Shown: positions 1,393 to 57,182 of the stretch, in pieces | Layout of the letters: each line of letters begins with the position of its first letter | Numbering within the stretch: position 1 is the first letter of the stretch | NCBI GenBank assembly: GCA_965208905.1 | Contig: OZ242365.1 | Coordinates: forward strand, 704,001 to 768,000 | Source of the DNA: Nitrosopumilaceae archaeon | GTDB lineage: Archaea; Thermoproteota; Nitrososphaeria; Nitrososphaerales; Nitrosopumilaceae | Length of the DNA stretch: 64,000 nt | Direction of reading: 5' to 3' | Position numbers and translations under genes: made by a program | Notes under the pieces: model-generated | What the model saw: only the letters and a program-made list of their open reading frames with translations | What the model was told of the DNA's origin: nothing | Database searches by the model: none

Positions 1393-3135
1393 CTAGTCCA
1401 AGATTATTTGTCCGGCAGGCACAAATCCGTTCAAATCAGTAACCTTCAGCAATCCTGGTGTAACCGTATAGAGATAGTCCCCTATGTACAGGGAGCGGGC
1501 CCAATCCGTATCATCATGCTTCACTATGCCCCTCTTTACAAGTATATTGTTTTCAATATTGTATACATGAAAGGTAGTTACACCATCGTGTGTGACTGGT
1601 ATGGATATTATGCGTGTAGATATGAGCGCCGCCTTATGATCCCACTGAATCTCCGAGTAGGCGTCACGATCATCTATAACCTCAAAGTCTGACAGGGTAG
1701 GATTGGTAGGATCAGATACATCAAAGACGGTTACTTTTATGCCGTCGATTACAGGCCCCCACTGTGCCTCTATGGTCTCGCGCCCCACTCCTACTACGGT
1801 ATCCTCATCATAGGGATGCAGATACTCGGAGAATCCCGGTAGTTTCAACTCGCCAACAACCATGGGACTCTCTGAAAAGTCGATTACAAAGAACGGATCC
1901 ACCTGACGGAAGGTAACCAGATACAGCGTATCACCATAAAACCTTGCAGAGTGCATCGTCTCCCCTGGTGCGATATCATACACGGCGCCCAGCATATCCA
2001 GATTGCTGTCCAATTTGAAAGCAGAGTTTACGCCAGACCAGGTGGTGGTTGCAATACGGAACGTGTTGTCCTTCTCGGCCATTGCAAACTGGTTTATTGG
2101 ATACCCCGGTACTGTACCTGCACCCTGATATGACAGGCCGGTTCCAGAGAGTCCTATCTTTACAACCTGAGTGTCGGTGGCACATATTGCCCCGCGAGTA
2201 GATTGGTCGGGAGGCCAGCTTGCACCGGACGAATAACCGGTCCCTGGCATAACAAGATACATGTTTGATTCAGAGACATATATCTCCATGTTAAATGGCG
2301 TAAGGAATGAAATTGCATCAAAACCAGACTCCAGACTGACCGCTGTTATCATGGTTCTGGTATCAACCATATAGAATGGGAAGTAATGCGTGTCGGGACT
2401 TTTTGCATCTGATCCATATTTTACAACAGGTATCCTATCTGGGGAGTCCTGAGTTATAACATAGATTGTGTTGTTTATGAGCCGGGCGTCTGTCATTGTT
2501 CCGGTTATTAATATACGATCAAGGATCTGCGGGTTTGTCCTATCAGATACATTCAATATTGTTATTTTTGTATCCCCACCCACATTGAACACAGCCAACA
2601 TGTCCTTATGCAAGAGAGCGGGCCCAGTTATCGGACTGTGCCCTACAACAGATATTCCATCAGGTGGATATGCCTGTATGACGTTCAGCTGACTACCAGA
2701 CAAGAATATGTCGGTGGCCGTGTTCTTTATGATGTCTGGCTCATCAACTTTGGCCTCCTGTATGTTGGTGGTAGAGTATAACGGGGAGGATGTACCTGCT
2801 GTAGACTCTGTCCTTGATGGCGCTATGGACAGCGTCACTGTATCCTGAATGACACCTTCCTGAAAGGACGTACCAAATGTAACTCTATTATTGTATGAGA
2901 GACATGCATGCGCGGGTACCTCGCCTGGCACTACTGTGGGCAGCGGTATGTCAGGTATGTAAAATCCAAACTGTATCATACTTTCGACATAATCCTCATC
3001 AACACATACCGAATTGCCCGTATCATGATGCATGAGCACCATATCTATGCAATAGTTTGCCTCAGCTGGCGGGATTGAGATGACAAGCAAGGCTACTACA
3101 GGCAACAATACGGCCAATGTCGTGCAATTAAACAT
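1393..3135 (-). CDS. Secreted beta-propeller domain protein (Beta_propel family)
   Basis: Signal peptide; motifs VDEPDIIK, LVTFRQVDPFFVID, GELKLPGFSEYLHPY. ATG 3135 preferred because a TATA-like box lies about 25 nt upstream. Confidence 0.8.
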   Translation of the reverse strand: MFNCTTLAVLLPVVALLVISIPPAEANYCIDMVLMHHDTGNSVCVDEDYVESMIQFGFYIPDIPLPTVVPGEVPAHACLSYNNRVTFGTSFQEGVIQDTVTLSIAPSRTESTAGTSSPLYSTTNIQEAKVDEPDIIKNTATDIFLSGSQLNVIQAYPPDGISVVGHSPITGPALLHKDMLAVFNVGGDTKITILNVSDRTNPQILDRILITGTMTDARLINNTIYVITQDSPDRIPVVKYGSDAKSPDTHYFPFYMVDTRTMITAVSLESGFDAISFLTPFNMEIYVSESNMYLVMPGTGYSSGASWPPDQSTRGAICATDTQVVKIGLSGTGLSYQGAGTVPGYPINQFAMAEKDNTFRIATTTWSGVNSAFKLDSNLDMLGAVYDIAPGETMHSARFYGDTLYLVTFRQVDPFFVIDFSESPMVVGELKLPGFSEYLHPYDEDTVVGVGRETIEAQWGPVIDGIKVTVFDVSDPTNPTLSDFEVIDDRDAYSEIQWDHKAALISTRIISIPVTHDGVTTFHVYNIENNILVKRGIVKHDDTDWARSLYIGDYLYTVTPGLLKVTDLNGFVPAGQIILD

Positions 3136-3176
3136 ACGTTTAGCGTATGCCAATCCTATTTAAGAGTGATTTGTGC

Positions 3177-3281
3177 GGATTTCTCCCGCAAGGGCAGGTG
3201 ATTATCTAGACGGTCCAGATCCAGACTGCAACACGGCCCAAATCGGACATGCGCGGGCAGTCAGGATGTGTTTTGGGTCGG
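3177..3281 (+). mobile_element. Candidate ~105-bp non-coding tnpB-element derivative (left-end motif plus structured RNA)
   Basis: Left-end motif copy at 3178-3200, stems GACTGC/GCAGTC and CGGCCCAAA/TTTGGGTCG, bounded by GG on both sides. Confidence 0.4.
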
Positions 3282-3378
3282 TTTTTTGGCAAAGTCCCAC
3301 CCGAATAGAGTACTTCAAAAAGCAAAACAGATACCTAAATCGTCAAAAATTATATACGAATTGCCAATATTACACATA

Positions 3379-3846
3379 TTGTCACGCATAGATGATATAG
3401 ACACATTAATTTTGTCTGAATTAGCCAACGATTCTTCAATATCCATCCCTAAACTATCATCAAAGATAAACGTCAATACATCTGTGGTGTACTCTCGTAT
3501 ACGCAGATTACAGTCTCGAGGACTCATACGCCGTTTTACCATAGAGGTGAACAATGCTGCCTTAGGATATACAGTAAAGGTACTGGCAGGTATAAAGATG
3601 GATACAAAGAAACGTAATCATATAATGCAAGAGTTATTCAACATTGATGGCGTCTTTGAGGTGGCTGAAGTGACTGGCCGCTTTGACATACTAGTTACAG
3701 CATACGCCAAGTCTCTGGAGTCGATGCATCACATGGTCTCTGAAAAGATAGGCCGTATAGATGGCGTACTCTCTTCAGAGTCATTTATAGAGATGAAGTC
3801 ACGTCAAAAGGCAATGCCATATATGGCCTCGGGTGGTGCTACTTGA
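3379..3846 (+). CDS. Lrp/AsnC family transcriptional regulator
   Basis: IDDIDTLILSEL, HTH, EVTGRFDI ligand domain; TTG 3379 follows TTATATA, so the longer ORF from 3268 is likely over-extended. Confidence 0.9.
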   Translation: MSRIDDIDTLILSELANDSSISIPKLSSKINVNTSVVYSRIRRLQSRGLIRRFTIEVNNAALGYTVKVLAGIKMDTKKRNHIMQELFNIDGVFEVAEVTGRFDILVTAYAKSLESMHHMVSEKIGRIDGVLSSESFIEMKSRQKAMPYMASGGAT

Positions 3847-4763
3847 CGTTGCAGAAACAAAAGACCTCCTCTAGGCTTGCCGTATACTATGAGCTGACAA
3901 AACCAAAGATATGGTATCTTTTGGTGTTTACAGCCTTTGGAGGATTGGTGGTGGCATCCAACATACACGGTGTCGAGGTATCAATTTGGACCTGGCTGCT
4001 GGCCATATTTTCGGTGGCTGCCGGTTCTGCAGCGGCCAACACCTTGACCAACTACCATGATCGGGATATAGATAGTATAATGGAGCGCACAAAACTACGG
4101 CCTTTGCCATCTAAGAGGATATATCCTGCCGTCAAGGCGCGAAACTTTGGATACATACTGGGAGGCATCTCACTGTTGCTGGCATGGTGTATATCATATA
4201 CGACTAGTATGGAGCAGGGTATGTGGGCTACGGCGTTTATAGCATTTGGCCTGCTGAACAACATCTTGATATACTCATACGCGCTAAAGCGGCGTTCCCG
4301 ACTCAATATCATACTGGGAGGACTGTGCGGCGGCTCACCACCCTTGGTGGGCTGGGTTGCTGTCACTATGGCCGATTTATGGAGTATGGGACTTGTACTG
4401 GCGGGTCTGGTCTTTGTCTGGATTCCATTACACATATGGTCGCTGACCATGCACTTTAAAGACGACTACAACAAGGTCGGCGTTCCCATGCTCACGGCGG
4501 TCCAGTCTGAGAGTATGTCTGCCCGGGTGATTGCCGCCTCTACCATGGCAATGGTAGCATTTAGTCTGGTTCCACTGTTTCTGTCTGGCGTGTCTGGTGT
4601 AGTGTATGCTGCCACTGCCTTGGCATCGGGCGGCTTGATGCTTGCCTTATCGGGCTGGGTTGTAGTTCGACCATCTGAAAAGTCTGCTTGGACACTCTTC
4701 AAATTTTCAAGTCCCTACCTGGCTGTACTATTTATCGGCATAATGGTGGATACTGCACTATAG
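3843..4763 (+). CDS. cyoE: Protoheme IX farnesyltransferase
   Basis: UbiA-family membrane protein: LTKPKI, DRDIDSIMERTKLRPLP, DDYNKVGVPML. Confidence 0.95.
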   Translation: MTLQKQKTSSRLAVYYELTKPKIWYLLVFTAFGGLVVASNIHGVEVSIWTWLLAIFSVAAGSAAANTLTNYHDRDIDSIMERTKLRPLPSKRIYPAVKARNFGYILGGISLLLAWCISYTTSMEQGMWATAFIAFGLLNNILIYSYALKRRSRLNIILGGLCGGSPPLVGWVAVTMADLWSMGLVLAGLVFVWIPLHIWSLTMHFKDDYNKVGVPMLTAVQSESMSARVIAASTMAMVAFSLVPLFLSGVSGVVYAATALASGGLMLALSGWVVVRPSEKSAWTLFKFSSPYLAVLFIGIMVDTAL

Positions 4764-23477: not shown

Positions 23478-24440
23478 ATGAAGTGTTATATTTTGCTGAT
23501 GGTACTGTTATTGGTACCATTTGTATCTATATCGTATGCTGATTTAGAATTATATACTAACAGTAAGGTGTACACTACCGGCCAGCCGTTATTTGTATTT
23601 GGACAAACTTCTCCTCATGATAGTGTAGTAATACGGGTGCTTGGACCTGATGATGCCATTATTAGGTTTGATCAGATAACTGCAGAGCCGGACGGCTCAT
23701 ATCAGTATATTGTATTGACATGGCCCGAGGCCACCGTAACTTTTCCGTATGGGACGTATACAATTGAAGCTATAAGTACACAACAGAGTGATGAGTCCAG
23801 CTTGATTAATGTACGGTTTGCCGAGTCTTCAGAACTGGTAGAGACTCCAGTTGAGCGCAGTATACAGATGTTGATATTTGCCCCCGATATGGCTGCGGTA
23901 GGCGACACATTGCGCGTCTTTGTCCAGACTACCAGCGATGGGCTGTTAGTGGGGAACAATCCTGACTCTTTACTGGGAACTACCCATGTCCATCTACCAG
24001 ATGATACTGTGCATGATATCAGTGATAGCTTTGAGGCTCTACATAGGGGTCTATTCTATGCCGACTATACACCACATCAGGAAGGAACATACGTGTTTCA
24101 TGCCGTTGCGTTTAGCCAGGGCACAATATCGCATGGTTCTGCAGCTACTACAGTCTTGAAGCAAGACATTGGCGATATATCTGATCAAATTATACATCTA
24201 AACACAATACTTGCAGAGACATCTACTGAACTCGAACAACTAAAGGCAGAAGTGTCCGAGTTCAAAGGGACGCTGGAGCAGGCCAGTGATAGAATTGATA
24301 CCAGTGTAACTTCAGTATCTGAATCTGTCTCGAATATAGAGGAGGCATCCTCACAGTTAAACTCAATCTTCTTTCCTGTTGTTGCATTGATAGGTGTGAT
24401 TGTAGCACTACAGATTGCCACACTGGCTCGTAGCCGATGA
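23478..24440 (+). CDS. Membrane-anchored Ig-like/coiled-coil protein, candidate S-layer anchor (SlaB-like)
   Basis: Signal peptide, beta-rich domains, coiled coil, C-terminal TM helix; directly after slaA. Confidence 0.6.
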   Translation: MKCYILLMVLLLVPFVSISYADLELYTNSKVYTTGQPLFVFGQTSPHDSVVIRVLGPDDAIIRFDQITAEPDGSYQYIVLTWPEATVTFPYGTYTIEAISTQQSDESSLINVRFAESSELVETPVERSIQMLIFAPDMAAVGDTLRVFVQTTSDGLLVGNNPDSLLGTTHVHLPDDTVHDISDSFEALHRGLFYADYTPHQEGTYVFHAVAFSQGTISHGSAATTVLKQDIGDISDQIIHLNTILAETSTELEQLKAEVSEFKGTLEQASDRIDTSVTSVSESVSNIEEASSQLNSIFFPVVALIGVIVALQIATLARSR

Positions 24441-24474
24441 TATGTTATGTGCGGCGTTTTATATCATTCTTTAT

Positions 24475-25950
24475 GGGAATTATATAGATAAGAACACAGC
24501 CACAGATGCGCGCTTATCCCTTTTCTGACGACTTCGTTGTATGGAGTGGAGCATGGCGGGTGTTGGCTTGTAGCCCTCCTTGTGCCCCGGCCGTCTTAGG
24601 ACGACATTCCCCGCCGCCCGATACAGAATGTTCCAGGCGGCATTGACATCCGCGTGGAATACCCTGGTACAATTAGTGCAAATGAATTTGTCGCGTGATA
24701 TACGCGACTCTGAATCTACGTGATCACACACATGGCACGTCTGGCTCGTATATTTGGCCGATGCCCCCAACAGCGGTATGTTGTGTATCTCACACCACTG
24801 CGCAAGCTTGCGCAGGAACTCCCCAACACGGTTCTCCCGCATTGAACGGTTCATGGCGCGTTTGTAATTCCCGCCATGTGTGGTCATGTCTTTTACGGAG
24901 AACGACTCGACCACAATTGCGTCCACACCATTAGTTATCTGCGCAATCGTCTGATTTATCGTGTTCGCAGCTATGTTGTTGGCCTTCCTGTATAGCCGCC
25001 TTATTTGGTCATTCAATACACACCACTTCCGGCCATGCCGTACCTTGTGGTCACGAAGGTTCTTGAGCGCGTCAATCTCCCGCAGGATTGCTCTATGGCG
25101 TGTGTTGTGTATTGTAACATTGCCATTTGTGTCGACGGTAACTGCCAAGTGCTTGCAGCCCACATCGACACCACGCATTACACCAGTATTGCGGTGCGGC
25201 TCGACCGGGACGCGCACGGCGATATGCAGCTCAAACATGTGGTCTGACGGCTTTGTATGCTTGTCCACCCGTTTGGTGACATCAACTATCTTGAATGAGC
25301 GCATGTCCCATGATACAGCGATGGGCTTGGCGGTCTCTACAATACCATATCCGGGGATATGGATGGTGTGCTCACCTTTTCTTACCGGCGGATTTATACA
25401 GCTAAGTATGATGCGGCCGTCTTTGCGGCGGTACGGCGCGTGGTCTGAGTTGTCATCTATAACCCTTCTACATGCGACGGAGGCATCCTGTATGGCGCCC
25501 CTGCCAAACGATGCGGGGTACTCGCGCAGCCATGTATGTTTGGCGCGCCACCCCGTAAGCTGCTTGAACATGCCATACTTTAATGCCCTCTTTGACGGCC
25601 CAAAATCATATGTATGGTAGTCATCGTCCAACGTACCTGATGTAAAATCCAGCTTGCCCGGTAGTTTGAAGGGCTGCAGGATGTCCACTACCACCCTCCC
25701 CATATATTCACCACCAAACAAATACTCTGATACGGCGCGGTTGTACACATGTCTGGATACATGGCCCATACGGTGCACCCACTCTGCAAACAACACATCC
25801 CTTCGTAGCGGTACCTTGACTATCCGTATCATGATGTGTAATACGGTATACTGGTATTTAAGGAAGAATGTGGCGCATAGGCATGAAATCCATGGTGGTT
25901 TAGGCGTTAACCAAAACCTCCACAGGTGTGTTCTAATCTATATAATTCCC
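24475..25950 (-). mobile_element. TIR-bounded non-autonomous element carrying tnpB (IS1595-like ends)
   Basis: 24-bp TIRs 24475-24498 and 25927-25950 (23/24); 8-bp TSD TTCTTTAT at 24467-24474 and 25951-25958. Confidence 0.9.
24480..25832 (-). CDS. tnpB: TnpB RNA-guided endonuclease (copy 2)
   Basis: GVDVG, VVE, TSQTCHVC, CTNC, HADVNAAWNI; stop codon lies inside the TIR. Confidence 0.92.
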   Translation of the reverse strand: MIRIVKVPLRRDVLFAEWVHRMGHVSRHVYNRAVSEYLFGGEYMGRVVVDILQPFKLPGKLDFTSGTLDDDYHTYDFGPSKRALKYGMFKQLTGWRAKHTWLREYPASFGRGAIQDASVACRRVIDDNSDHAPYRRKDGRIILSCINPPVRKGEHTIHIPGYGIVETAKPIAVSWDMRSFKIVDVTKRVDKHTKPSDHMFELHIAVRVPVEPHRNTGVMRGVDVGCKHLAVTVDTNGNVTIHNTRHRAILREIDALKNLRDHKVRHGRKWCVLNDQIRRLYRKANNIAANTINQTIAQITNGVDAIVVESFSVKDMTTHGGNYKRAMNRSMRENRVGEFLRKLAQWCEIHNIPLLGASAKYTSQTCHVCDHVDSESRISRDKFICTNCTRVFHADVNAAWNILYRAAGNVVLRRPGHKEGYKPTPAMLHSIQRSRQKRDKRASVAVFLSI

Positions 25951-26219
25951 TTCTTTATCATGTATAGAATATCTTGCGCAGTCTTTATGCCGCATGTCAC
26001 ATCATGTGTAGTGGGCATATCTTCTATGCTGGGATATCTTGCTACTATCCATGATGAGATTATGTCCCATTCGTATTGTACACGTTTGATATCCCAGCCA
26101 TCAGGTACTGAATCTATTTTGACGAACTCGTCAGTATCTTGACGTGTATTTTTGTATGCGGTTGGAGTGGACCCCATAGAATGTTACTGTTTTCGGCATG
26201 ATTTTACATACATCTTCCA

Positions 26220-27077
26220 TCATTTATTTGTCATCTCCAACTGTTCGGCAAATTCTACTGGTGTCATGTATCCGATAGAGGAATGAATCCTCTCGGTGTT
26301 GTAATCTACAAAGGCCTTTGCAATGATCGTCTCTGCCTCCTGATAGTTCGCAAACTCGTGCGGCCAGATGTATTCCTTTTTCAGCGTCTTGTGAAATGAT
26401 TCGACATGTCCGTTCTGCTCCGGCGTATTCTTGTAGATGAATTCATGTTTGCCGATGCCAAGGGCCTGAACCGCATGTCTAAAGTCGCGGCTCGTATACT
26501 GGTTGCCGTTGTCCGTACGCAATCGTAATTGTGAGCAGTCAGGTTTCTCTGCGGCAACCGCGTTGGTGATTGAGGTGATTGCAATGTCTCGTGTGGCATT
26601 GACATCAAACGCGTAGGCGATCCACTTGCGCGTAAAGCAGTCAATTACGTTGAAGCAGTAGCACCAGCCGTCTATACCGCACCAGATGTATGTGATGTCC
26701 GTCTCCCACAACTGGTGTGGGGCTTTGGGTTTGAAGAGCTTTTGACCCGCTCGAATGATGTCGTTTTTGGTATTTTGTGGCTGGATGTAGCCCATTTTGC
26801 GATATATCCGCTGTATCTGCTTGCGGTTCACCACAATTCCCGTATCGCGCGTTATCTGGGCCGCCATGCGCCGTGTGCCGTACGTGGGCCTCTTTCTGCT
26901 CGTATCTAGCACAGTGCTCAATATATCCGGATTCAATCCCATGTCTCTGGGCTTGGGTTTGTAGTACCATTGGCGCCTGGATACGCCCGCATACCCTAGC
27001 GACTTGCGCAGGCTCAAATGTTGTTCCTGCATGATTTTTACCGCGTTCAATCGTTGCTTGCCTCCAAGGTTTTTTTT
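26220..27077 (-). CDS. IS3 transposase OrfB (DDE), reached by -1 frameshift
   Basis: WETDITY, RTDNG, VESFHKTLKKE; A8 slippery run at 27070-27077. Confidence 0.9.
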   Translation of the reverse strand, partial: KKNLGGKQRLNAVKIMQEQHLSLRKSLGYAGVSRRQWYYKPKPRDMGLNPDILSTVLDTSRKRPTYGTRRMAAQITRDTGIVVNRKQIQRIYRKMGYIQPQNTKNDIIRAGQKLFKPKAPHQLWETDITYIWCGIDGWCYCFNVIDCFTRKWIAYAFDVNATRDIAITSITNAVAAEKPDCSQLRLRTDNGNQYTSRDFRHAVQALGIGKHEFIYKNTPEQNGHVESFHKTLKKEYIWPHEFANYQEAETIIAKAFVDYNTERIHSSIGYMTPVEFAEQLEMTNK

Positions 27078-27337
27078 AAAGCGTCGTTTGCGATTGTCAG
27101 ATCCCCTATGATTCGCTTTAGGTCGCCGTTCTCCTTTTTGATGGCCTTTATCGGATCCTTCTTTCCGTGATGGGTCAGTCCGGACTTGCCTGCGTCCATG
27201 AACTTTTGCCGCCAGGCTTGAAACGTTTGGGGATGAACGTTGTGCTTGCGGCACAGCTCGGCCGTGCCAATATTGGTCTTGATTGATTCCAAAACGATCT
27301 GGATCTTTTGGTCTGGAGTAAACTTTGTTCTTACCAT
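27047..27337 (-). CDS. IS3 transposase OrfA (HTH)
   Basis: KFTPDQKIQIV...AELCRKHNV...W plus leucine-zipper tail. Confidence 0.9.
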   Translation of the reverse strand: MVRTKFTPDQKIQIVLESIKTNIGTAELCRKHNVHPQTFQAWRQKFMDAGKSGLTHHGKKDPIKAIKKENGDLKRIIGDLTIANDALKKTLEASND

Positions 27338-27804: not shown

Positions 27805-28674
27805 CTATTTGTCATCGTCATCATCACCCAAAAAGATATCCATGCCAACTTCAGAAGCCTTCTGATATACGGCATCTAAGGCATCCATAAAGGACTCCTC
27901 ACTTCTCCAAAATGAAAGGCTGCCCAGTTGGCGAGGGAGGGATATGGACACTTCTGGTATGAATGCAGGGTGTGTCGGTACCATGCCATGTACACCTTTG
28001 CCCCAGAATGCATCCATGTCGACTGGAAGATCCTCATTCTTTGGAGCTTTCGGGGCCAGTATGGATACATCGGTATCGTGTTTAACATCTGAGAACGCAC
28101 TTACACCCATCATATCAAGTAAGTCCTTGGGGTCCATGCCCCTCACCCGCAGTATCAGAAGTGGTTCCAGATCAAAGCGCTCGGATACTATCAAATATAC
28201 CGCCGCTATATGTTTACAGGGATTGGCCCAGTCCCAGCAATTACAGTCAGTCTTTAGGTCATCGGGAAAGAGTGAAAGACCCACATCGCTAAAGACACTC
28301 TCCAGCTCTTCAGGCATCTGACCAGCCATCATCTTGGCGGCAATGACAGGTCTTGCCATCAACGAGTCTGCCACTTTCTTCCACTCGTCGGTACCCAGAC
28401 GTTTTACATTTATAGATACCTTGTACGGTTGGGACTCTGAGCCATACACGTCTCCATACACGCCACCCTTCTTCACATCTATTGACTCAACCTGGCCGCG
28501 GCGAGCGTATGAGCGAGCCCGGGCGAGTCGGCTATCATCTATTTTTTTATACAATATATCATTCCATCTCTTACCCCACCAGGTTCTAGCAGACTCACCG
28601 CGCTTTGACTGCAGTTTTATACCACCCTTGACCTTTTTGAGGCTACGAGATGTGTAATAATATCCGCCCCACAC
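27805..28674 (-). CDS. SWIM zinc finger protein
   Basis: RLARARSYARRGQV; CNC...CKH. Confidence 0.9.
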   Translation of the reverse strand: MWGGYYYTSRSLKKVKGGIKLQSKRGESARTWWGKRWNDILYKKIDDSRLARARSYARRGQVESIDVKKGGVYGDVYGSESQPYKVSINVKRLGTDEWKKVADSLMARPVIAAKMMAGQMPEELESVFSDVGLSLFPDDLKTDCNCWDWANPCKHIAAVYLIVSERFDLEPLLILRVRGMDPKDLLDMMGVSAFSDVKHDTDVSILAPKAPKNEDLPVDMDAFWGKGVHGMVPTHPAFIPEVSISLPRQLGSLSFWRSEESFMDALDAVYQKASEVGMDIFLGDDDDDK

Positions 28675-31667
28675 TATGCCATCGCCTCCCGACTCAATGC
28701 TAGTACCTCGCGCAACTCTTCATTGGACATATTGGCAATCCATCCTTCACCAGTACCAACTACACTTCCGGCTATCTGTTTCTTTTGTTCGATCATTTTA
28801 TCTATCTTCTCTTCAAGCGTACCAATACACATCATCTTGCGCACCTGCACGTTTTTGGTCTGACCTATGCGAAAAGCCCGGTCAGTGGCCTGGTCTTCAA
28901 CGGCGGGGTTCCACCACCGATCAAAGTGGAACACATGATTGGCGGCAGTCAGATTCAGACCTGTTCCGCCAGCCTTTAGAGATACAACAAACACCTGTAT
29001 TGCATCATCACCACTAAAGCGTTCCACCATAATGTCACGCTGTCGCCGCGGCGTGCCCCCATGTAGGAATAACACCTCACGACCAAATGTCTCCTGAATG
29101 TGTTGCTTTATGATGTTGCCCATCTCCACAAATTGAGTGAATATCAGGGCCTTGTCGCCGGTCTCTATCACCTCCTCAAGCATCTGTATGAGTCTGTCCA
29201 GCTTACCAGAGCGTTTTGGTATTGCAGAGTTATCTCTTAGGAAGTGGGCCGGATGATTGCACACCTGTTTGAGTTTGATAAGCGCTCCTAGAATTGCACC
29301 CTTTCGCCCCATGCCCTCGGACTCCAATATGGCATTCTCTACATCCTGTAGCACGGAAGCATATAGTGTGGTCTGCTCCTTTGTCAGGGCGCAGTACTCT
29401 TTAATCTCAATCTTATCGGGCAGATCTGATATTACAGACTTGTCGGTCTTGAGTCTGCGCAGTATAAACGGACCGGTAGCCCGCCGGAGCCTATTGATTG
29501 CCTCCTCGCCTTGGCCAGCCTTTATGGGACGTATAAAGTTCTTTTGGAACTGTTCTAGTCCGCCCAAAAATCCCGCATTCAGAAACTCCATTATGGACCA
29601 CAAATCCGCCACGCCATTCTCGACCGGCGTGCCGGTCAGGGCAAACTTATAGTCTGCCGTAATGGAACGTATCACCTGTGCCTGTTTGGCGTATGGGTTC
29701 TTGATATTCTGAGCCTCATCAGCCACAATACCACTCCATTCCACACCTCGTATTGTGTCAACATCACGTCTTAGTGTGCCATAACTTGTAACAACTAGAG
29801 CATGGCTAGCAGCGTCCTTGGCAAATGTATCAGACTTTGTCCTAGAAGATCCATGATGTATCATGACCGGCATGTTGGGCGTGAAACGAGCAGCCTCCCG
29901 TTTCCAGTTATTAATTACGGATGTGGGACATACCAACAAGGCCGGCCTACCCTCTCTTCCCTCCACATCCCGTTGTATCATGGTCAGTGTCTGAACCGTC
30001 TTTCCCAGGCCCATGTCATCTGCCAGGCATCCGCCCAATCCCAAATCTCGCAGGAATGACAGCCATGCATACCCCCGTCGCTGATATGGCCGGAGCTCTC
30101 CAGTAAAGTGTTTGGGCAGATTTGGTTCTTGTATGGTTGCCTGTCCATTCAATCTTTCTATTATATCAGTAATTGTATCTGCGGATGATACCCCGCCCCA
30201 CTCCAGATCCGCAGGCATATCGCCCATTCCCAGATCCATTTTAATCATGTCTTGCAGAGATCTTTTGTTACCACCCTTCTTTAACAAGCGTATGGCAGAG
30301 CGTATCTCTTTGTGACTCACCACAGCCCATTGACCCCGCATTCTCACAAGTGGTGACTTTAGTGCAGCCATCGCCTCCAATTCCTCGATAGACATAGTCT
30401 GATCCCCCAGTGCCACTTCCCAGTCAAATTGCATCACACTGTCCAATGTCAACATGCCCGAACTTTGATTGGTGGCGCGCTGCATATTGGCCCTGGCGGT
30501 CAGCCGCCGGGTCTTATCACGTCCCATCCACCACGCGGGAAGTATAACTCCATATCCTGCCTTACTGAGGGCCTCGGCATCACGGGTCAAAAATTGGTAG
30601 GCGCCACCTGCGCTGGTCGTATACCCCACAGGCCCATCCTTTGTTATTCCATTTGATATGTCCGGGCAGATGCTGGCAGCCTGTCCCAAGGCAAGCAGTA
30701 TGTGGCCTCGTATATCCGACTCTTTAGAGTTCCATACTGTGTCGGCGGGCACCAGTAGGCTGGGGTCATCGTTGGGTTGCACCAAATATCGCACAGTCCA
30801 TTTACCGTGATCTTTGTCGGGTTCTTCAATACGAAAGCATATTCGAAAGGACGAGCCTGCCATTACGCCTATAGGTGCCTGCCATTCGCGTATCTGGCCC
30901 ACCAGAGTCTGTACTCCCTCGGCAGTACCGGATATCGTGTTGTTGTTGGAGCGCAGCGAATGCAGCCACGCATCATGGTCACTGTCAAAGCGGGCACGGT
31001 GACGTCGATAACTCTTAGAGTCCGAGTGTACTGTGCGTACCAGATAATCAGTCATGTTCGATATTACATTCCACAACACTGTGACCGCGGGCTGAAAGAT
31101 AGTTTCCTTGTCTTCGCCCCATGTCAGGGCGCGCCCCGATGCGGGCATTTTGGCAGCGGCCACATCCATCCATTCGGCATCCTCACCCACAAATGCAGGA
31201 TTCCATACCCCCTTATACTTTTCATCAAAATGGGGTATGGCATCGGGCAGATACTGCTGTCTTGCAACCATTGAGATGGCCTGCCGTAATATGTGTGTCC
31301 ACCACGCCATATCTTCACCCACTATAACGCCATCTTTCAGAGTTCTCTTGCCATATGCCGTGCTCAATATCGCTATACTTTCGGCCATAGAGAGGCTTAG
31401 AGTTGCAACCTTCCAGGGAGCAATACGTTTTGGTGTCGCGCTCATTTCACCAAGCATGCCACTAGAAGGTACCGGGGCATCATCCGCGGTGGGAAGCCAT
31501 GCCACTGCCACTGCATCCTTACTCTTCTTTAGTATTGGAGATGTCTCCCGGAGCTCGTCAGTGGTAGCCGACAAAGGATGTTTGCCTTTTTTGGCTTTCG
31601 AGTCTTTGGATTTTTCAGCCCAGAGTACAAGCGAGTCCAGTATATTGGCCATATGTAGTATTAACAT
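28674..31667 (-). CDS. SNF2-family helicase/ATPase
   Basis: LRPYQ, LADDMGLGKT, DEAQ, LTGTPVEN, QATDRAFRIGQ. Confidence 0.95.
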   Translation of the reverse strand: MLILHMANILDSLVLWAEKSKDSKAKKGKHPLSATTDELRETSPILKKSKDAVAVAWLPTADDAPVPSSGMLGEMSATPKRIAPWKVATLSLSMAESIAILSTAYGKRTLKDGVIVGEDMAWWTHILRQAISMVARQQYLPDAIPHFDEKYKGVWNPAFVGEDAEWMDVAAAKMPASGRALTWGEDKETIFQPAVTVLWNVISNMTDYLVRTVHSDSKSYRRHRARFDSDHDAWLHSLRSNNNTISGTAEGVQTLVGQIREWQAPIGVMAGSSFRICFRIEEPDKDHGKWTVRYLVQPNDDPSLLVPADTVWNSKESDIRGHILLALGQAASICPDISNGITKDGPVGYTTSAGGAYQFLTRDAEALSKAGYGVILPAWWMGRDKTRRLTARANMQRATNQSSGMLTLDSVMQFDWEVALGDQTMSIEELEAMAALKSPLVRMRGQWAVVSHKEIRSAIRLLKKGGNKRSLQDMIKMDLGMGDMPADLEWGGVSSADTITDIIERLNGQATIQEPNLPKHFTGELRPYQRRGYAWLSFLRDLGLGGCLADDMGLGKTVQTLTMIQRDVEGREGRPALLVCPTSVINNWKREAARFTPNMPVMIHHGSSRTKSDTFAKDAASHALVVTSYGTLRRDVDTIRGVEWSGIVADEAQNIKNPYAKQAQVIRSITADYKFALTGTPVENGVADLWSIMEFLNAGFLGGLEQFQKNFIRPIKAGQGEEAINRLRRATGPFILRRLKTDKSVISDLPDKIEIKEYCALTKEQTTLYASVLQDVENAILESEGMGRKGAILGALIKLKQVCNHPAHFLRDNSAIPKRSGKLDRLIQMLEEVIETGDKALIFTQFVEMGNIIKQHIQETFGREVLFLHGGTPRRQRDIMVERFSGDDAIQVFVVSLKAGGTGLNLTAANHVFHFDRWWNPAVEDQATDRAFRIGQTKNVQVRKMMCIGTLEEKIDKMIEQKKQIAGSVVGTGEGWIANMSNEELREVLALSREAMA

Positions 31668-32006: not shown

Positions 32007-35000
32007 GTGAAATACATATGCAAGTTTATGTGGACGTGGTTTGCGTTTGTATTGCTTATCATATCTGGAGTGTCTATCCCTGTATTGGCGCTCGAGTACC
32101 CTGATTTTGCGCAAGATGCACCCAACTACACATCAAATATAGTACAGTTTGATCCCAGCACGTTTCAATCGTATAATCTACACCGCTATATCACAGATAC
32201 TGGTATAGTGGTGCAGGATGACTCTTGGCCAAATGTACTATTTGGCGCCATGCGTGACATAAAACTGACACAGCACAATCAGGCAGCAGATATAGGACAT
32301 GTTACCGGCTCCACAGTTGCCAATAATATGTATAATGCCACCGGTAAAGGTGTTGTAGTGGCCGTAGTGGACTCGGGTGTGGACTTTTCCAATCCAGACC
32401 TGATACATGCAATAGCCAGGGATAAGAACAACTATCCTATAATGCTGGACCCTGACGGGCAGGGCATAGTGATAACAAATGCAACCTTTGCATCCAACAT
32501 AGATGACAACGGTATAATACGAAATATCGAAGATATTGGAAATCACACATCAAGAGTGTATGTGGATGACGCCGGCGTATATCTGGATGTGTACCAACAA
32601 GGGGTGGGAACCGAACTAGCTGTATACAATACATTTTACCCAATGCTGGGAAGTTCGCCAATACTGACAGGTTTGATGGATGATGATTTGAAGATCGGTG
32701 ACAACAACCGAGACTTTATACGGTCCCAGAGCGGAGTGTATCACTTTGGTGTCGCACTGTTACTTAGTGGGAATCAAATTCTGGTGGTACCATTGTTGAT
32801 AGTGGATTCGCAGACTGCTGGCATATATGATACAGTAATACCTGACATGTCTACATCCTGGGCAGACTTTATGCTACGTATAGGCTCAGATGACTCTCCA
32901 AAACTAGACTTTGACTTTACTGATGAGACGCCCATCATACTGGGTAGCGGAAATGAAGTACTAGTGTATGATCACAATGATGATGGCTACGGAGACTATA
33001 GCGCTGGCGTGCTGGGCGCCCGAGTCTTGGATGTATATGGTGCAATATCAAATACTACTACCCCTGACGACTACATCACTGGGTCCATAAATGCAACACT
33101 ACTAGAACCTCTGGATGTGGACGGCAATTATCTAGGTATAATGACTGACTATAGTTACCATGGCACGGCAGTGGCTGGCGTCATATCATCTAGAGGCAGT
33201 CAATCGTATGATATATACAATGATACTGAACTTTACACAATTCCAGGAGTCGCTCCTGATGCCAAAATATTACCCGTCAAGGCGTTATGGTATGGTAGTG
33301 TCGAATACGGCTGGCTGTGGGCTGCTGGTATGGAGAATGATGGTGGTGGATGGGAGTACACCGGCGAGGAACGCGCTCATATAATAACGAACAGTTGGAG
33401 CGTACCTACATTTCCCAATGTAGAGGAGGCGCCCGGCTATGACCAGCTATCTACATTAGCCAACACATTAACCACGCCCGGCGCCCTGCATCAGAACCAT
33501 CCTGGTGTAGTAATGATAGCCAGCGCCGGAAATTCAGGTCATGGATATGGTACCATCAGCTTACCTGGCGCTGCATCATTGGTATTATCGGCCGGAGCGA
33601 GCACCAGCTCTGCATACGTAAACACTCCGATATTTGAGGGACAGCCTCGATTTGGCAACTCTACCATACATGATAATCATTTGGTGGACTTTTCCAGTAG
33701 GGGTCCGGGTATAATAGGTGATACAAAACCAGATCTGGTATCCATGGGAGCTTATGGTTTCTCACTTGGTATGGTAACCAAAACTGATGTAGACTCCGAA
33801 GACGAACCATACAGACTATTTGGAGGTACATCCATGTCTGCACCCCTGATTGCTGGAGTTGCTGCCATTATAATCGAGCAGCTAACAACAAACGATATGC
33901 CGTATACGCCATTTACAATAAAGAATATACTAATGTCAACTGCCAACGACATGGGAAATGACCCCCTTGTACAGGGGGCCGGACTTGTAAATGCAACCAG
34001 AGCATCTGAGTATGTGGCCGGTGATGGGCCGTTCCTGGTCACTAATGATATGTCGTATACAAACATTCGTGAGGCGACACTACCTGCCATCCAGTCATTG
34101 AACAATACAATATTTGGAATTGATCATATTGCAGTACCGCCAAAGTCGTACCCCATGAGTAGTTGGTTTGCTGGCCATCTACAACATAACCAAAAGAGTG
34201 CAACTACATTTACAGTAACAAATCCCACAGACCGGCCCATCACAATACAGGTACAACCACAGACCGTTTCAATATTACAGCAAGGAGATGTGAATCTAAC
34301 CACTATCCCCCGCCAACAAGATATTGTAATGAACGATGATGGTGTATATGCCCCCAATTACGTACTGTTGTCGGATGTACGACAGACATCAACACTATCT
34401 GAGATATTTGCTCCCAACGACATACCAGAGTCCTCACTCTTGGTCTTGAATGTCAACTTTGACTTTGATGAATTTCTAAACTCTACTGCAGATGTATTCG
34501 CCGATGACTTTGTAATATCCTCATTATATCTATACGACTGGATTGATCGTAACGGTGATGGCGAGATAGAGGCTGGCGAGCTGGCCATGGTGAATAGAGC
34601 TGGAAATTGGGGAACTGTCCAAGAGATGAGAGTATCACATCCGCATCAGATATTTGACGGCATACCCGTTGTGGGGGTATACCCGGTACCTGTAAAGGCA
34701 TCATACTGGCGTGGGATTACCGATGTCAACGCCACTGCCATGGACTATACAATTACCGCCACATACTATGATAGGGTACACTGGCCGGATGTGTGGCTGG
34801 AGTCCAGCAGTATTGTGGTGCCTCCACAGTCCGAATATACAATAAACGCTGCCATCTCGGTTCCGCCCAACGTGGACAGCGGCATATATCAGGGATTTGT
34901 CACGTTCATGTCAGATACACATACAGTAAACGTACCTGTGTCATATGCTGTCACGCAACCAGTTACAGATGGTATGATACACCTTGTATCGGGCAATGAT

Positions 35001-36536: not shown

Positions 36537-37838
36537 TCAACGTAAGATGCCGGCCTGCGTTATCACAGATGTTGGCGGTGAACCGCCATTCAGAGGAGCT
36601 CTACTGAGATGTTCCTTGATGGTTGGACTTTGACGCCCATCCTTTGGACAGCCTGTGCCGGCCATCACGTCGTTAGCACTTGGGGGAAGCGTGCAAGTGC
36701 CAAGATGTATCTTTCCTCTCAAGACCACTCCGGCCTTGGTTTGCAGTGAATAAACGGCCTGCGCACGCTTACTCCACTGCACTGCATAAAAAGTGAATAA
36801 TATATTGAATGCCGCGTTTATATCAGCGTGCACCAGAACACCACAATCATGACACCGAAACTTACTGCTTTTGCGACATGTGTTTGTGCTGCCACACATG
36901 CAACATAGTTGTGAGGTGCCTTTCTGGTCTATTTCCATGTACTCGGTGTTATGTTGCAAAGCCTGCTGCGCTAGCAAGGCCCGCGCCTCACCACACTTAC
37001 TTTGTCGCATCAATCTATTCTTGGCTTTCTGACCCTTCCCTTTTGTGGTCATGGTGTGGAGATTCATGCCCTCCATGATGATTTTGTCACACTGTCTCAT
37101 CAGTTTCTTAGAGAACTTGCGCAGCTGGTCTTTCTGCTTATTCTCCATCTTTTTGTAGACTGATTGTAGCTGTGCATGCAGGCTGCGCCACTTGTGAGAA
37201 TAAAGTTTACAACGAGACATCTTTTTCTGTATTCGCGCGATATTCCGCAATGTGTCCTTCTCTCGAAGCGTAAGCATGGCAATACTGCCGTCTGACTTTC
37301 CAACAATAAGTGTGTGCTTGCCACCCATGTCAATCCCCGCATGTATACCGGTCGCTACGCGGTCCGGTATATGTTCACGTATAGTTACATGTAGTTCAAA
37401 TTGCCTTTCCTTATCAGCATGGTTTGTAACATCCACAAGCTTATATGACTGTGATGTGTGGGGGAGTGTACCTTTCTGCAGTTTGAAGGGCATGTTGCAC
37501 CTTGGGAGGTACACTATATCATCTTTGGACTTTTTACCCAACGGTATAGCGCTGTACAAAGGATATATCTTGCTCCCGTACTTCACATGACTGCAGCCTT
37601 CCATCGCGTGGCCTTCCTGGATTGCGCCACGAACCCAGGCCTGGGGAATGGTCTGAAGCAGTGTTGCTATTGTCATGGTGTCAAATACCGACAATCCAGC
37701 CCGCCGCGCCTCAATCCCCGCATTGAGCCACATATGTGATTCAGAATACATGGAGTTAAAGTACTTGGTGAGTTTGGTTGATGTCTTTAAACGGTACCGA
37801 AGGGTTCTAATAACGTATTGTGTACCATTGTACTTCAT
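36537..37838 (-). CDS. tnpB: TnpB RNA-guided endonuclease (copy 3)
   Basis: AGIDMG, IME, TSQLCCMC, CHDC, HADINAAFNI; shares VDVT...FELH with copy 2. Confidence 0.92.
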   Translation of the reverse strand: MKYNGTQYVIRTLRYRLKTSTKLTKYFNSMYSESHMWLNAGIEARRAGLSVFDTMTIATLLQTIPQAWVRGAIQEGHAMEGCSHVKYGSKIYPLYSAIPLGKKSKDDIVYLPRCNMPFKLQKGTLPHTSQSYKLVDVTNHADKERQFELHVTIREHIPDRVATGIHAGIDMGGKHTLIVGKSDGSIAMLTLREKDTLRNIARIQKKMSRCKLYSHKWRSLHAQLQSVYKKMENKQKDQLRKFSKKLMRQCDKIIMEGMNLHTMTTKGKGQKAKNRLMRQSKCGEARALLAQQALQHNTEYMEIDQKGTSQLCCMCGSTNTCRKSSKFRCHDCGVLVHADINAAFNILFTFYAVQWSKRAQAVYSLQTKAGVVLRGKIHLGTCTLPPSANDVMAGTGCPKDGRQSPTIKEHLSRAPLNGGSPPTSVITQAGILR

Positions 37839-55530: not shown

Positions 55531-55617
55531 TATAATGTGTATTGCATCATAAAAAAATAAAACATTTTTGCATAACTACATTACAAATTCAAATATTATG
55601 GGTTTTAGAAATAATTT

Positions 55618-56047
55618 GGGAATTATCTCCTTAATTCGCAAACTGAAAAAACATGACACCTTTAGATAATGTAACACTATATGGTACAAGGGTAGCAAAC
55701 ACATCATAAAGATACTACGATACAAGGTGAGCACATACTCACATGTTACATACGTAGCAATATGATGCACTCTGAAGTGAACGCGGACTATGGCATATTG
55801 TATAATACAAGTATAGTAGAATGGTCAAGGCGTGCGCAACACAACATCAGACTATACAAGTCGTACGACAAGGTCGGACTGGCCTTGCAAGACAAGATAC
55901 ATCTCAGTAGATATATTATATCTCCAGTTACTAGAGACGGGGCTGATGGCGCAGGCGACCCTCAGCGACATCTTAATAGAGGCATCTCTGAGTGGCGAAC
56001 TCGCCAACAGATGTATGGTAGTTCTGCGAACTATGTATATGATTCCC
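55618..56047 (+). mobile_element. TIR-bounded 430-bp element carrying an internally deleted tnpB
   Basis: 23-bp TIRs 55618-55640 and 56025-56047 (18/23); 8-bp TSD AATAATTT at 55610-55617 and 56048-56055. Confidence 0.85.
55681..56010 (+). pseudogene. tnpB: tnpB remnant related to copy 3 (first ~20 codons plus 3' tail)
   Basis: YKGSKHIIKILRYKV vs YNGTQYVIRTLRYRL; HSEVNA...VEWSRRAQ...KVGLALQDKIHL vs HADINA...VQWSKRAQ...KAGVVLRGKIHL. Confidence 0.8.
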
Positions 56048-56087
56048 AATAATTTTATAAAGTTCTATCTTTGTGTAATGCGTGGAG

Positions 56088-57182
56088 ATGAAAAAGACTG
56101 CCATACCAGGCTTTTATAAGAAAACACCAGATGAACGTCTGGATATAATCTCAAATATTGCCAATCTGAACAAGACTGAAAGAGATGCACTTCGAGCCGA
56201 ATTAAATGTAGATGTGGCAGATGGTCTAATAGAGAATACAATTGGAACTTTTACACTACCACTGGGCATTGCTACAAATTTTAGAATAAACAACCGCGAT
56301 TATATCATACCCATGGTAATAGAGGAGCCCTCAGTTGTCGCTGCGGCATCTGCAGGAGCAAAGGCAACCGATAACGTCACAGTTACAGGTGGTAATTCAC
56401 ATGTAATAGGACAGATACAGGTTTTGAATCCGGATGCAGATGCAATTGCAAAAGTTCTATCAAGAAAATCTGACATACTTGATGCTGCAGCCAGTATACT
56501 CTCCGGGCACATGTCTGTTGTGGATGTATACAGTAGTATGCTTGATGTACAGTCAAGGATGCTAAAGGTGGAGATTGTAATTGATACTGGTGAGGCGATG
56601 GGGGCTAACGCAGTAAATACCACCTGTGAGGGTCTGGCCCCCATAATAGAAGAGATAACCGGCGGACGTGTGCTGTTGCGCATACTGTCTAATGCTGTTC
56701 CTGGTGTGGTATCTGCGCAGGCTCACTTTAAGACAAGTGACTCTGTCGCCAGAGATATTGTATCTGCATACGAGTTTGCCCATATTGACAAACTTCGTGC
56801 CGTGACACACAACAAGGGAATAATGAATGGAATAACTGCTGTGGCGATGGCAACCGGTCAGGATACTCGTGCCATAGAAGCGGCAGCGCATATGTATGCG
56901 GCCGAGTCTGGCGTTTATGGACCTCTCTCAAAGTGGTATATGCAAGATGATAGACTATGTGGCGAGCTACACCTGCCCATACGTGTGGGAACCGTTGGTG
57001 GCCTTACTACACATCATGATACAGCTGCAACATGTCTCAAAATACTGGGTAATCCTACCTCGCAGGAGCTGGCAGGTATAATGGTATCTGTTGGACTATG
57101 CCAAAACTTCTCGGCCTTAAGGGCACTATCTACAGACGGCATACAGAAAGGACATATGAAACTCCATGCGCGGCGTCTGTGA
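56088..57182 (+). CDS. mvaA: HMG-CoA reductase, class II
   Basis: ENTIG, EEPSVVAA, AMGAN, THNKGIMNG, GIQKGHMKLH. Confidence 0.92.
   Translation: MKKTAIPGFYKKTPDERLDIISNIANLNKTERDALRAELNVDVADGLIENTIGTFTLPLGIATNFRINNRDYIIPMVIEEPSVVAAASAGAKATDNVTVTGGNSHVIGQIQVLNPDADAIAKVLSRKSDILDAAASILSGHMSVVDVYSSMLDVQSRMLKVEIVIDTGEAMGANAVNTTCEGLAPIIEEITGGRVLLRILSNAVPGVVSAQAHFKTSDSVARDIVSAYEFAHIDKLRAVTHNKGIMNGITAVAMATGQDTRAIEAAAHMYAAESGVYGPLSKWYMQDDRLCGELHLPIRVGTVGGLTTHHDTAATCLKILGNPTSQELAGIMVSVGLCQNFSALRALSTDGIQKGHMKLHARRL

Follow-up and report, generated by a model that had tools for sequence, protein, structure and literature searches.

The RNA-guided nuclease TnpB is mainly understood through insertion sequences (ISs) of the IS200/IS605 and IS607 families, which excise without leaving a scar, so that renewed RNA-guided cutting at the donor site is of use to them. 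TnpB branches associated with DDE transposases (DDE-1 to DDE-6), in elements with inverted ends, have also been described (Altae-Tran et al., 2023 PNAS; PMC10691335); the 3' ends of these TnpBs lie within 250 bp of the transposon end, and solo TnpBs with ends nearly identical to those of transposase-bearing elements were considered to be probably mobilized in trans. The DDE family named with TnpB in the text of that paper is IS630, and the text of a 2026 review (PMC13565253) names ISL2, IS630, and IS1031, asks what would lead a cut-and-paste DDE element to retain a TnpB, and discusses the rarity of such retention. Passenger genes are known from members of the IS1595 family ("transporter IS"), as are transposase-less mobile insertion cassettes of this family (PMC3129680, citing Siguier 2009). 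Here, we describe a tnpB element with IS1595-type ends in a 64,000-nucleotide (nt) stretch of DNA (hereafter, the window) from a Nitrosopumilaceae archaeon (GCA_965208905.1, contig OZ242365.1). We consider it highly probable that this element is a transposase-less IS1595-family cassette, with a functional-looking tnpB as its sole cargo, and that it is moved in trans by an IS1595 transposase.

The window corresponds to G000:C1:704001-768000, where G000 is the source genome, a single contig of 2.21 Mb with 45.6% G+C and 99.6% completeness. Its close relatives in a protein search were contigs of Cenarchaeum sp. metagenome-assembled genomes, and the host is therefore taken to be a sponge-type thaumarchaeon.

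The element and its relatives share with the DDE-associated TnpBs, as presented in the text of PMC10691335, symmetric terminal inverted repeats (TIRs), a TnpB 3' end near the transposon end, and solo TnpBs with the ends of transposase elements. In the present case, the ends agree at 23 of 24 positions, only 5 nt separate the tnpB stop from the end, and in three composites of sister species a DDE transposase is linked to tnpB in cis. What differs is the family (IS1595), the variable 8-bp target site duplication (TSD), the location of the stop codon inside the TIR, and the lack of a TnpA partner for any of the TnpBs that the genome encodes, which form at least 8 nucleotide clusters. Likewise, the elements resemble the IS1595 passenger elements treated in PMC3129680 in their 8-bp TSDs, GG-initial TIRs, DDE_Tnp_IS1595 domain, passengers, and transposase-less derivatives, but their cargo is a nuclease that itself belongs to mobile elements.

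The earlier note on this DNA, made from the sequence alone, had left the question of novelty to a literature check. The check narrows the claim, as DDE-associated and trans-mobilized solo TnpBs are already in print (PMC10691335), whereas IS1595 is not among the families named in the text of that paper or of the review. We found no text that names TnpB as an IS1595 passenger, although the supplementary tables of PMC10691335, which lay outside the search, may list one; a literature search for TnpB together with Cenarchaeum found nothing. The novelty is thus that of an IS1595-family tnpB cassette within the already known class of DDE-associated TnpBs. Compared with the texts of PMC10691335 and PMC13565253, this case is better documented in its empty sites, in-cis units, genome-wide lack of TnpA, and one-sided flank motif.

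Anatomy, copies, and empty sites of the tnpB cassette

Direct reading of the sequence places the cassette, 1476 bp in length, at window positions 24475-25950. Its 24-bp TIRs are GGGAATTATATAGATAAGAACACA on the tnpB 3' side (24475..24498, plus strand) and the reverse complement of GGGAATTATATAGATTAGAACACA on the tnpB 5' side (25927..25950, minus strand), identical to each other at 23 of 24 positions, and a perfect 8-bp TSD, TTCTTTAT, abuts both ends (24467..24474 and 25951..25958, unstranded). When the 24-mer end was sought with up to 3 mismatches, the two element ends were the only sites found in the 64-kb window, and 100 dinucleotide shuffles gave no match. The sole long open reading frame (ORF) of the element is an intact tnpB of 450 amino acids (aa) on the minus strand (24480..25832). 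Its TAA stop at 24480-24482 falls within the TIR, 5 nt from the last element base, and the last codons, encoding the C-terminal ...VAVFLSI, are likewise part of the repeat. At the other end of the gene, TTAAATA begins 31 nt upstream of the ATG, within a TATA-like box (CCTTAAATACC in the direction of tnpB; 25853..25863, minus strand) that presumably serves tnpB; TTAAATA is also the exact start of homology among sub-groups of the subfamily to which this tnpB belongs (c1, see below). Examination of ORFs and Pfam matches found no transposase gene within 24475-25950, so the element is regarded as a cassette and not as an autonomous IS.

The protein itself appears catalytically complete. The RuvC residues D223, E309, and D395, placed by alignment to the solved TnpB 8iaz and by inspection, are present, together with two CxxC pairs at 366-369 and 385-388. 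It passes the cut-offs of Pfam Cas12f1-like_TNB (PF07282; 57.4 bits, cut-off 26.3), Pfam OrfB_IS605 (PF01385; 34.2 bits, cut-off 30.5), and NCBIfam guided_TnpB (NF040570; 113.9 bits, cut-off 100), and it is far under those of NCBIfam IS200_TnpB (69.6 vs. 425 bits) and IS607_TnpB (76 vs. 350 bits). The anatomy reported in the earlier note, namely TIRs with a perfect TSD, a catalytically complete tnpB with its own TATA-like box, a stop codon in the TIR, and the absence of a transposase, is therefore upheld in full.

The cassette is one of many in its genome. Genome-wide, the end motif was found at 28 sites with up to 3 mismatches, and a reversed control pattern was found at none. By pairing termini with at most 2 mismatches to GGGAATTATATA and requiring an 8-bp TSD with at most 1 mismatch, we identified 27 elements in G000; a Pfam scan of 14 ORFs from the paired elements revealed tnpB-only units of 1420-1554 bp and four transposase elements. 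The genome has 75 matches to the TnpB (TNB) domain, and clustering of its 74 tnpB ORFs by nucleotide sequence gives at least 8 clusters. Subfamily c1, which includes the window tnpB, has 16 copies in G000 with 77-94% protein identity. Thirteen of these have their own 8-bp TSD (at least 7 of 8 bases matching) and unrelated flanks; three are without a matching TSD and may be rearranged. A search for further copies, suggested in the earlier note, thus finds the same ends at different TSD-marked sites. That note had also taken a second such element at 55618 as a sign of a family. The multi-copy family was indeed found, but the 55618 element does not carry tnpB. It is a cargo-less element of 430 bp (55618..56047, unstranded) with ends of the same family (GGGAATTATCTCC... 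and GGGAATCATATAC...) and a TSD, AATAATTT, at 55610-55617 and 56048-56055; no tnpB and no assignable ORF of at least 60 aa was found in it, and past the ends it has no likeness to the tnpB elements. The adjoining ORF (56082-57182) encodes HMG-CoA reductase. The small cargo-less elements and a 2131-bp IS1595 transposase element (see below) were also searched for remnants of tnpB and for a guide region like that of c1, and the ends were all that was found. Some cassettes have themselves received insertions with their outer TSD kept: a c5 cassette at G000:C1:1098872-1110533 is interrupted by about 10 kb of DNA, and a c1 cassette at 1972621-1975198 by an IS630-like (DDE_3) element.

Comparison with a sister genome, G005, provides the counterpart of the insertion. 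At the window site, G005 has TTCTTTAT once, between flanks that share 98% identity with those of the window over 3075 bp, and on this alignment it is a precise empty site, of the kind that the earlier note had proposed to seek. No c1-type TnpB is present in G005 (best match, 29% identity). Also absent from G005 are a second c1 copy (864610) and a copy of another cluster, c4 (28035); at both loci, the syntenic pieces have an overlap of precisely 8 bp. For the c1 copy at 33496, G005 lacks the cassette as well as 96 bp on its left and 65 bp on its right (comparison of G000:C1:33400-35032), and this cassette may be nested in another small element. In 20-kb comparisons, a c3 element at 872692 and two fragments showed complex differences from G005 and no clean empty site. 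Four public sequencing runs were examined as assembled contigs, which break within the repeated element. Contigs from two DNA runs extend from the left flank into the TIR, and among the contigs of the four runs none spans the element and none contains an empty-site joint.

IS1595 transposases and the proposed mobilization of tnpB cassettes

Four elements in G000 carry a transposase with the DDE_Tnp_IS1595 domain (PF12762, 138-140 bits), GGGAATTATA termini, and 8-bp TSDs; against NCBIfam NF033547, these transposases score 173-176 bits (cut-off 75), and the IS1595-family transposases scored from elements with such termini and TSDs span 170-176 bits. Two of them are copies of a 2131-bp element (G000:C1:675271-677401 and 1211856-1213986) at different sites. 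The copies are identical at 2130 of 2131 bases, indicating that the element was recently active. About 1.1 kb of this element lies next to the transposase, contains one 120-aa ORF without a Pfam match, and is unlike the tnpB elements. The other two, of 2837 and 2690 bp (G000:C1:1043578-1046414 and 1770047-1772736), have as a passenger an N6/N4 DNA methylase fused to an HNH nuclease, the HNH part of which weakly matches IscB and Cas9d models. Compared with the ends of these elements, the window ends show 12-13 matches over the first 13 nt and 17-19 over 24 nt with the 2837-bp element, 12 and 18 with the 2690-bp element, and 11 and 14-15 with the 2131-bp element. Counted as an unbroken match from the tip, 10-13 nt of the window ends agree with the ends of the four elements. 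An IS1595 transposase with matching ends, which the earlier note had suggested looking for, is therefore present in the same genome, with the reservation that the match falls short of identity over the full 24 nt. The note had read the cassette as IS1595-like, close to the ISNwi1 group, whose end consensus we take to be GGnnATTAT, and this reading gains support from the shared termini, the 8-bp TSDs, and composites in which tnpB and the transposase occur together.

Three such composites were found in two sister species, G001 and G006, each with a c5-like tnpB and an IS1595 transposase on the same strand within one pair of GGGAATTAT ends and one TSD. In L087 (G001, 2106-4667, TSD CCGGTATC), both ORFs were confirmed by Pfam and NCBIfam; in L088 (G001, 1920-4520, TSD TACCGCGA), the transposase is split over two reading frames; the third, L086, is in G006 (2223-4731, TSD GGGTCTAG). 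Judged from their sequences, the three composites represent separate insertions of a tnpB plus transposase unit that is autonomous. The IS1595 transposase is present in all 10 genomes of the genus, G000 included, and a homolog of the window TnpB (E <=1e-20) in 8 of the 9 other genomes of the genus. Among the 31 searched genomes of other genera, such a homolog was found in one (G015), where a 1882-bp tnpB element has perfect 30-nt GGGAATTATATAC ends and its own TSD.

The terminus is also closely associated with the transposase gene. Across the genus, a GGGAATTATA-type terminus precedes the IS1595 transposase in 19 distinct elements, and in 7 elements whose profile match starts at residue 1, the transposase ATG is 36-38 nt from the terminus. 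Given this spacing, GGGAA-TTATATA looks like a promoter, composed of a transcription factor B recognition element (BRE) and a TATA box, for a leaderless transposase mRNA. At the 3' end of tnpB, such a predicted inward-facing promoter would transcribe antisense into the putative guide region.

According to the mechanism that we favor, an IS1595 DDE transposase supplied in trans would bind the common GGGAATTATATA(C/G) termini, move the cassette, and make the 8-bp TSD, and TnpB would not be the transposase. Counting against it, no transposase element of G000 has ends identical to those of the window element beyond nt 13 (19 of 24 at best, in the 2837-bp element); cross-mobilization by IS1595 transposases with non-identical ends would be plausible. 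There is a slim chance that a different DDE transposase mobilizes the cassette and that the likeness to IS1595 ends is coincidental. Candidates would be the 13 IS240-like proteins of G000 (DDE_Tnp_IS240, PF13610; 356-501 aa, 46-58 bits; e.g., 1337783-1339051), which are presumably longer than typical IS6 transposases. An automated scan found no ends with TSD for these 13 proteins or for 3 weak IS1595-like transposases, and the IS240-like proteins, numerous and with undefined ends, are thus beyond the reach of an end comparison. However, the GGGAATTATA termini and 8-bp TSDs match the IS1595-transposase elements precisely, it is the IS1595 transposase whose ATG keeps the spacing of 36-38 nt from that terminus in 7 elements, and it is this transposase that shares a single TSD with tnpB in the three composites.

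We consider it very improbable that TnpB itself, or an IS200/IS605 or IS607 pathway, moves the element, which would make it IS1341-type and its repeats incidental. TnpB-only elements have traditionally been placed in the IS1341 group (PMC13565253), and like members of that group, the present elements consist of a single tnpB without a transposase and occur in multiple copies. By contrast, TIRs and variable 8-bp TSDs, both found here, are hallmarks of DDE transposition, and IS200/IS605 and IS607 elements, as described in the review text, have neither (PMC13565253). In addition, profile searches of the 99.6% complete, one-contig genome gave 0 matches to Y1 TnpA (PF01797) and 0 to the serine recombinase/resolvase domain (PF00239), and the TnpB scores against the IS200_TnpB and IS607_TnpB models are far under the cut-offs, as given above. 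Membership of the cassette in IS200/IS605 (IS1341 group) was rejected on the TIRs and TSD, the absence of Y1 TnpA, and the IS200_TnpB score, and membership in IS607 on the TIRs and TSD, the absence of a serine recombinase, and the IS607_TnpB score.

IS1595-type ends occur in three tnpB clusters of G000 (c1, c5, and c7). The ends of c3 and c4 are GGTTCCTCCCGCAA..., those of c2 are TGGGCTG..., TGAGCTGG..., or GGCACTGTCAAATC..., and c6 has a different inverted end; in these four clusters, the TSD is 8 bp wherever it is readable. Examples of tnpB elements with other ends and 8-bp TSDs are found at 239554-241169 and 28035-29550, and in the window at 3-1313 and 36537-37838 (both minus strand). The end types of the non-IS1595 tnpB elements are GGTTCCTCCCGCAA.., TGGGCTGTGACG.., TGAGCTGGTAAC.., and GGCACTGTCAAATC..., and the GGTTCC type is, we assume, reminiscent of IS6/IS26-type ends. 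One of the IS240-like proteins directly adjoins a truncated c2 tnpB (2094889-2097160). A strict automated scan recovered ends with a TSD for 34 of the 74 tnpB ORFs, its misses including truncated, nested, and rearranged copies. In a quick unrooted tree with long branches, two pairings emerge, c4/c5 (support 96) and c2/c7 (support 99), indicating that end type does not track TnpB descent. This pattern tentatively suggests repeated capture, or end exchange, among the tnpB clusters.

A putative guide RNA and a one-sided flank motif

The position of the stop codon leaves no space for a scaffold downstream of tnpB, so an omegaRNA scaffold would overlap the last codons. We compared ten 3'-terminal segments of 286 nt, five from c1 copies and five from homologs in G006 and G001 (about 57% protein identity). 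The segments share long runs of nucleotide identity and a consensus fold with pairing in 97.9% of cells and with changes on both sides in 9 of its 58 pairs. A compensatory count of 9 was reached by 1 of 500 shuffles, slid controls gave 0-3, and several invariant G-U pairs favor the sense strand. At codons whose amino acid is invariant, the third position is less diverse in the last 90 codons (0.11-0.16) than in codons 31-360 (0.18-0.41). These data are suggestive of an omegaRNA scaffold in the last ~250-290 nt of tnpB, ending at the element terminus; in the window, the consensus fold and the last ~90 codons would place it at 24475..24760 (minus strand). Several observations weigh on the other side. 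The first 30 codons are also low in third-position diversity (0.14), only two clades contribute to the covariation, which was scored on the very sequences used to derive the structure, and Rfam gave no match in 24200-26200. Moreover, the RNA-library contigs over tnpB are shallow, show 8-20 differences, and may stem from other copies or from DNA.

A guide RNA made from this region would run from the last ~250-290 nt of tnpB through the TIR and copy the TSD and adjacent flank. The expected geometry (TSD plus ~12 nt) is modeled on IS200/IS605 TnpB and on Fanzor, whose guide RNA crosses the 3' inverted repeat into the TSD (PMC10312701). For a read-through omegaRNA of the window element, the guide flank would be 24455..24474 (minus strand), a sequence that is intact at the G005 empty site. 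A guide-matching target would then exist only in the empty copy of the site, where the upstream flank ending in G would precede it; at the occupied site, the target would instead be preceded by ...TTCCC of the element. With target and upstream flank joined only in the empty allele, TnpB could cut empty alleles and spare occupied ones, favoring retention of the element or its re-copying by recombination. In the window, the candidate target-adjacent motif (TAM) is ...CATG in tnpB sense (25959..25962, minus strand), directly 5' of the TSD.

Fanzor/HERMES elements, as described in PMC10312701, PMC10711439, and PMC13565253, similarly have a TnpB homolog as non-transposase cargo of cut-and-paste transposons. 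They differ in that the host here is prokaryotic, and in that Fanzor TSDs are short, fixed sequences (TA, TTAA) forming part of the TAM, whereas the TSD here is a variable octamer with a conserved base just outside it.

This base was recognized in flanks read with the elements oriented by tnpB, with all c3 3' columns and c5 rows left out of the statistics. Upstream of tnpB, the flank base that immediately precedes the TSD is G in all 13 TSD-intact c1 copies and in 13 of the 15 c1 copies with a readable 5' end (binomial p 3e-7). The mirror position, after the downstream TSD, is C in 3 of 16 c1 copies (Fisher p 1e-5). Flank positions -3 and -4 of c1 lean to T and A. Elsewhere, the G precedes the TSD in 3 of 4 c1-like copies of G006 with a matching TSD, and in a c1-like copy of G008 if its TSD is taken as 7 bp. 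The same base is found before the TSD in 3 of 3 c7 elements, whereas c3 has TTA or ATA (9/10) and c4 has TTG (4/7). Despite a common stretch of 14 nt at the start of their ends, c3 and c4 differ in the frequency of A before the TSD (9/10 vs. 1/7, Fisher p 0.004).

By analogy with known systems, the position before the TSD coincides with that expected for the TAM of TnpB, if the guide is copied from the 3' flank. It is a tentative possibility, which we would place clearly below an even chance, that TnpB is a standard passenger of DDE transposons with more than one end family and that the upstream motif (G in c1, TTA in c3, and TTG in c4) is its TAM. Also possible, at somewhat under an even chance, is that the insertion machinery chooses its targets in one orientation, such as AT-rich, TATA-like promoter sites, with TnpB uninvolved in the locations of the copies. 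The TSDs are AT-rich octamers resembling TATA boxes, 11 of the 13 c1 copies are inserted between genes, and for 7 of the 13 a predicted gene start is no more than 100 nt away. Furthermore, 10 non-TnpB elements with the same termini show a mild enrichment of G (9 of 20 ends, binomial p 0.024), and the insertion machinery may account for part of the G signal. A pre-TSD motif is missing from the c5 subfamily and from the three in-cis composites, which likewise weighs against a TAM.

On the other hand, several observations are not what insertion machinery alone would lead one to expect. No single promoter geometry accompanies the invariant G. At 4 of the 13 c1 sites, the downstream neighbor is a convergent ORF, which faces the site with its 3' end. 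In the transposase-bearing IS1595 elements of the genus, G on the transposase-5' side is at background (5/19). The TIRs are identical over 21-24 nt, so that an asymmetric transposase complex is not expected, and the difference between c3 and c4 before the TSD arises next to ends that share 14 nt. As causes of the flank G, the TAM and the insertion machinery are each, in our estimate, serious possibilities that fall short of even.

Surroundings of the cassette and significance

The region around the tnpB cassette is a cluster of insertions. An IS3-family element (window 26220-27337, minus strand), with an HTH_Tnp_1 orfA and an rve orfB, lies 260 bp to the right of the cassette. A 79-aa ORF (window 25938-26177, minus strand) enters the TIR from the right flank and terminates there. 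Its frame would run on in the G005 empty site, and a small gene may have been truncated by the insertion.

Overall, annotation as "IS1341-type" conceals elements of other IS families, and the genus offers a natural system for studying the role of TnpB in DDE elements, with dozens of intact cassettes and no TnpA. It also offers recently active IS1595 transposases, autonomous tnpB plus transposase units, and empty sites, and from the one-sided flank motif a specific TAM can be predicted and put to the test. If the motif is indeed a TAM, copies would persist or spread only where an insertion happened by chance to leave an empty allele made up of TAM, TSD, and flank, a form of RNA-guided homing for a DDE element; alternatively, TnpB would help to choose or orient the insertion site.

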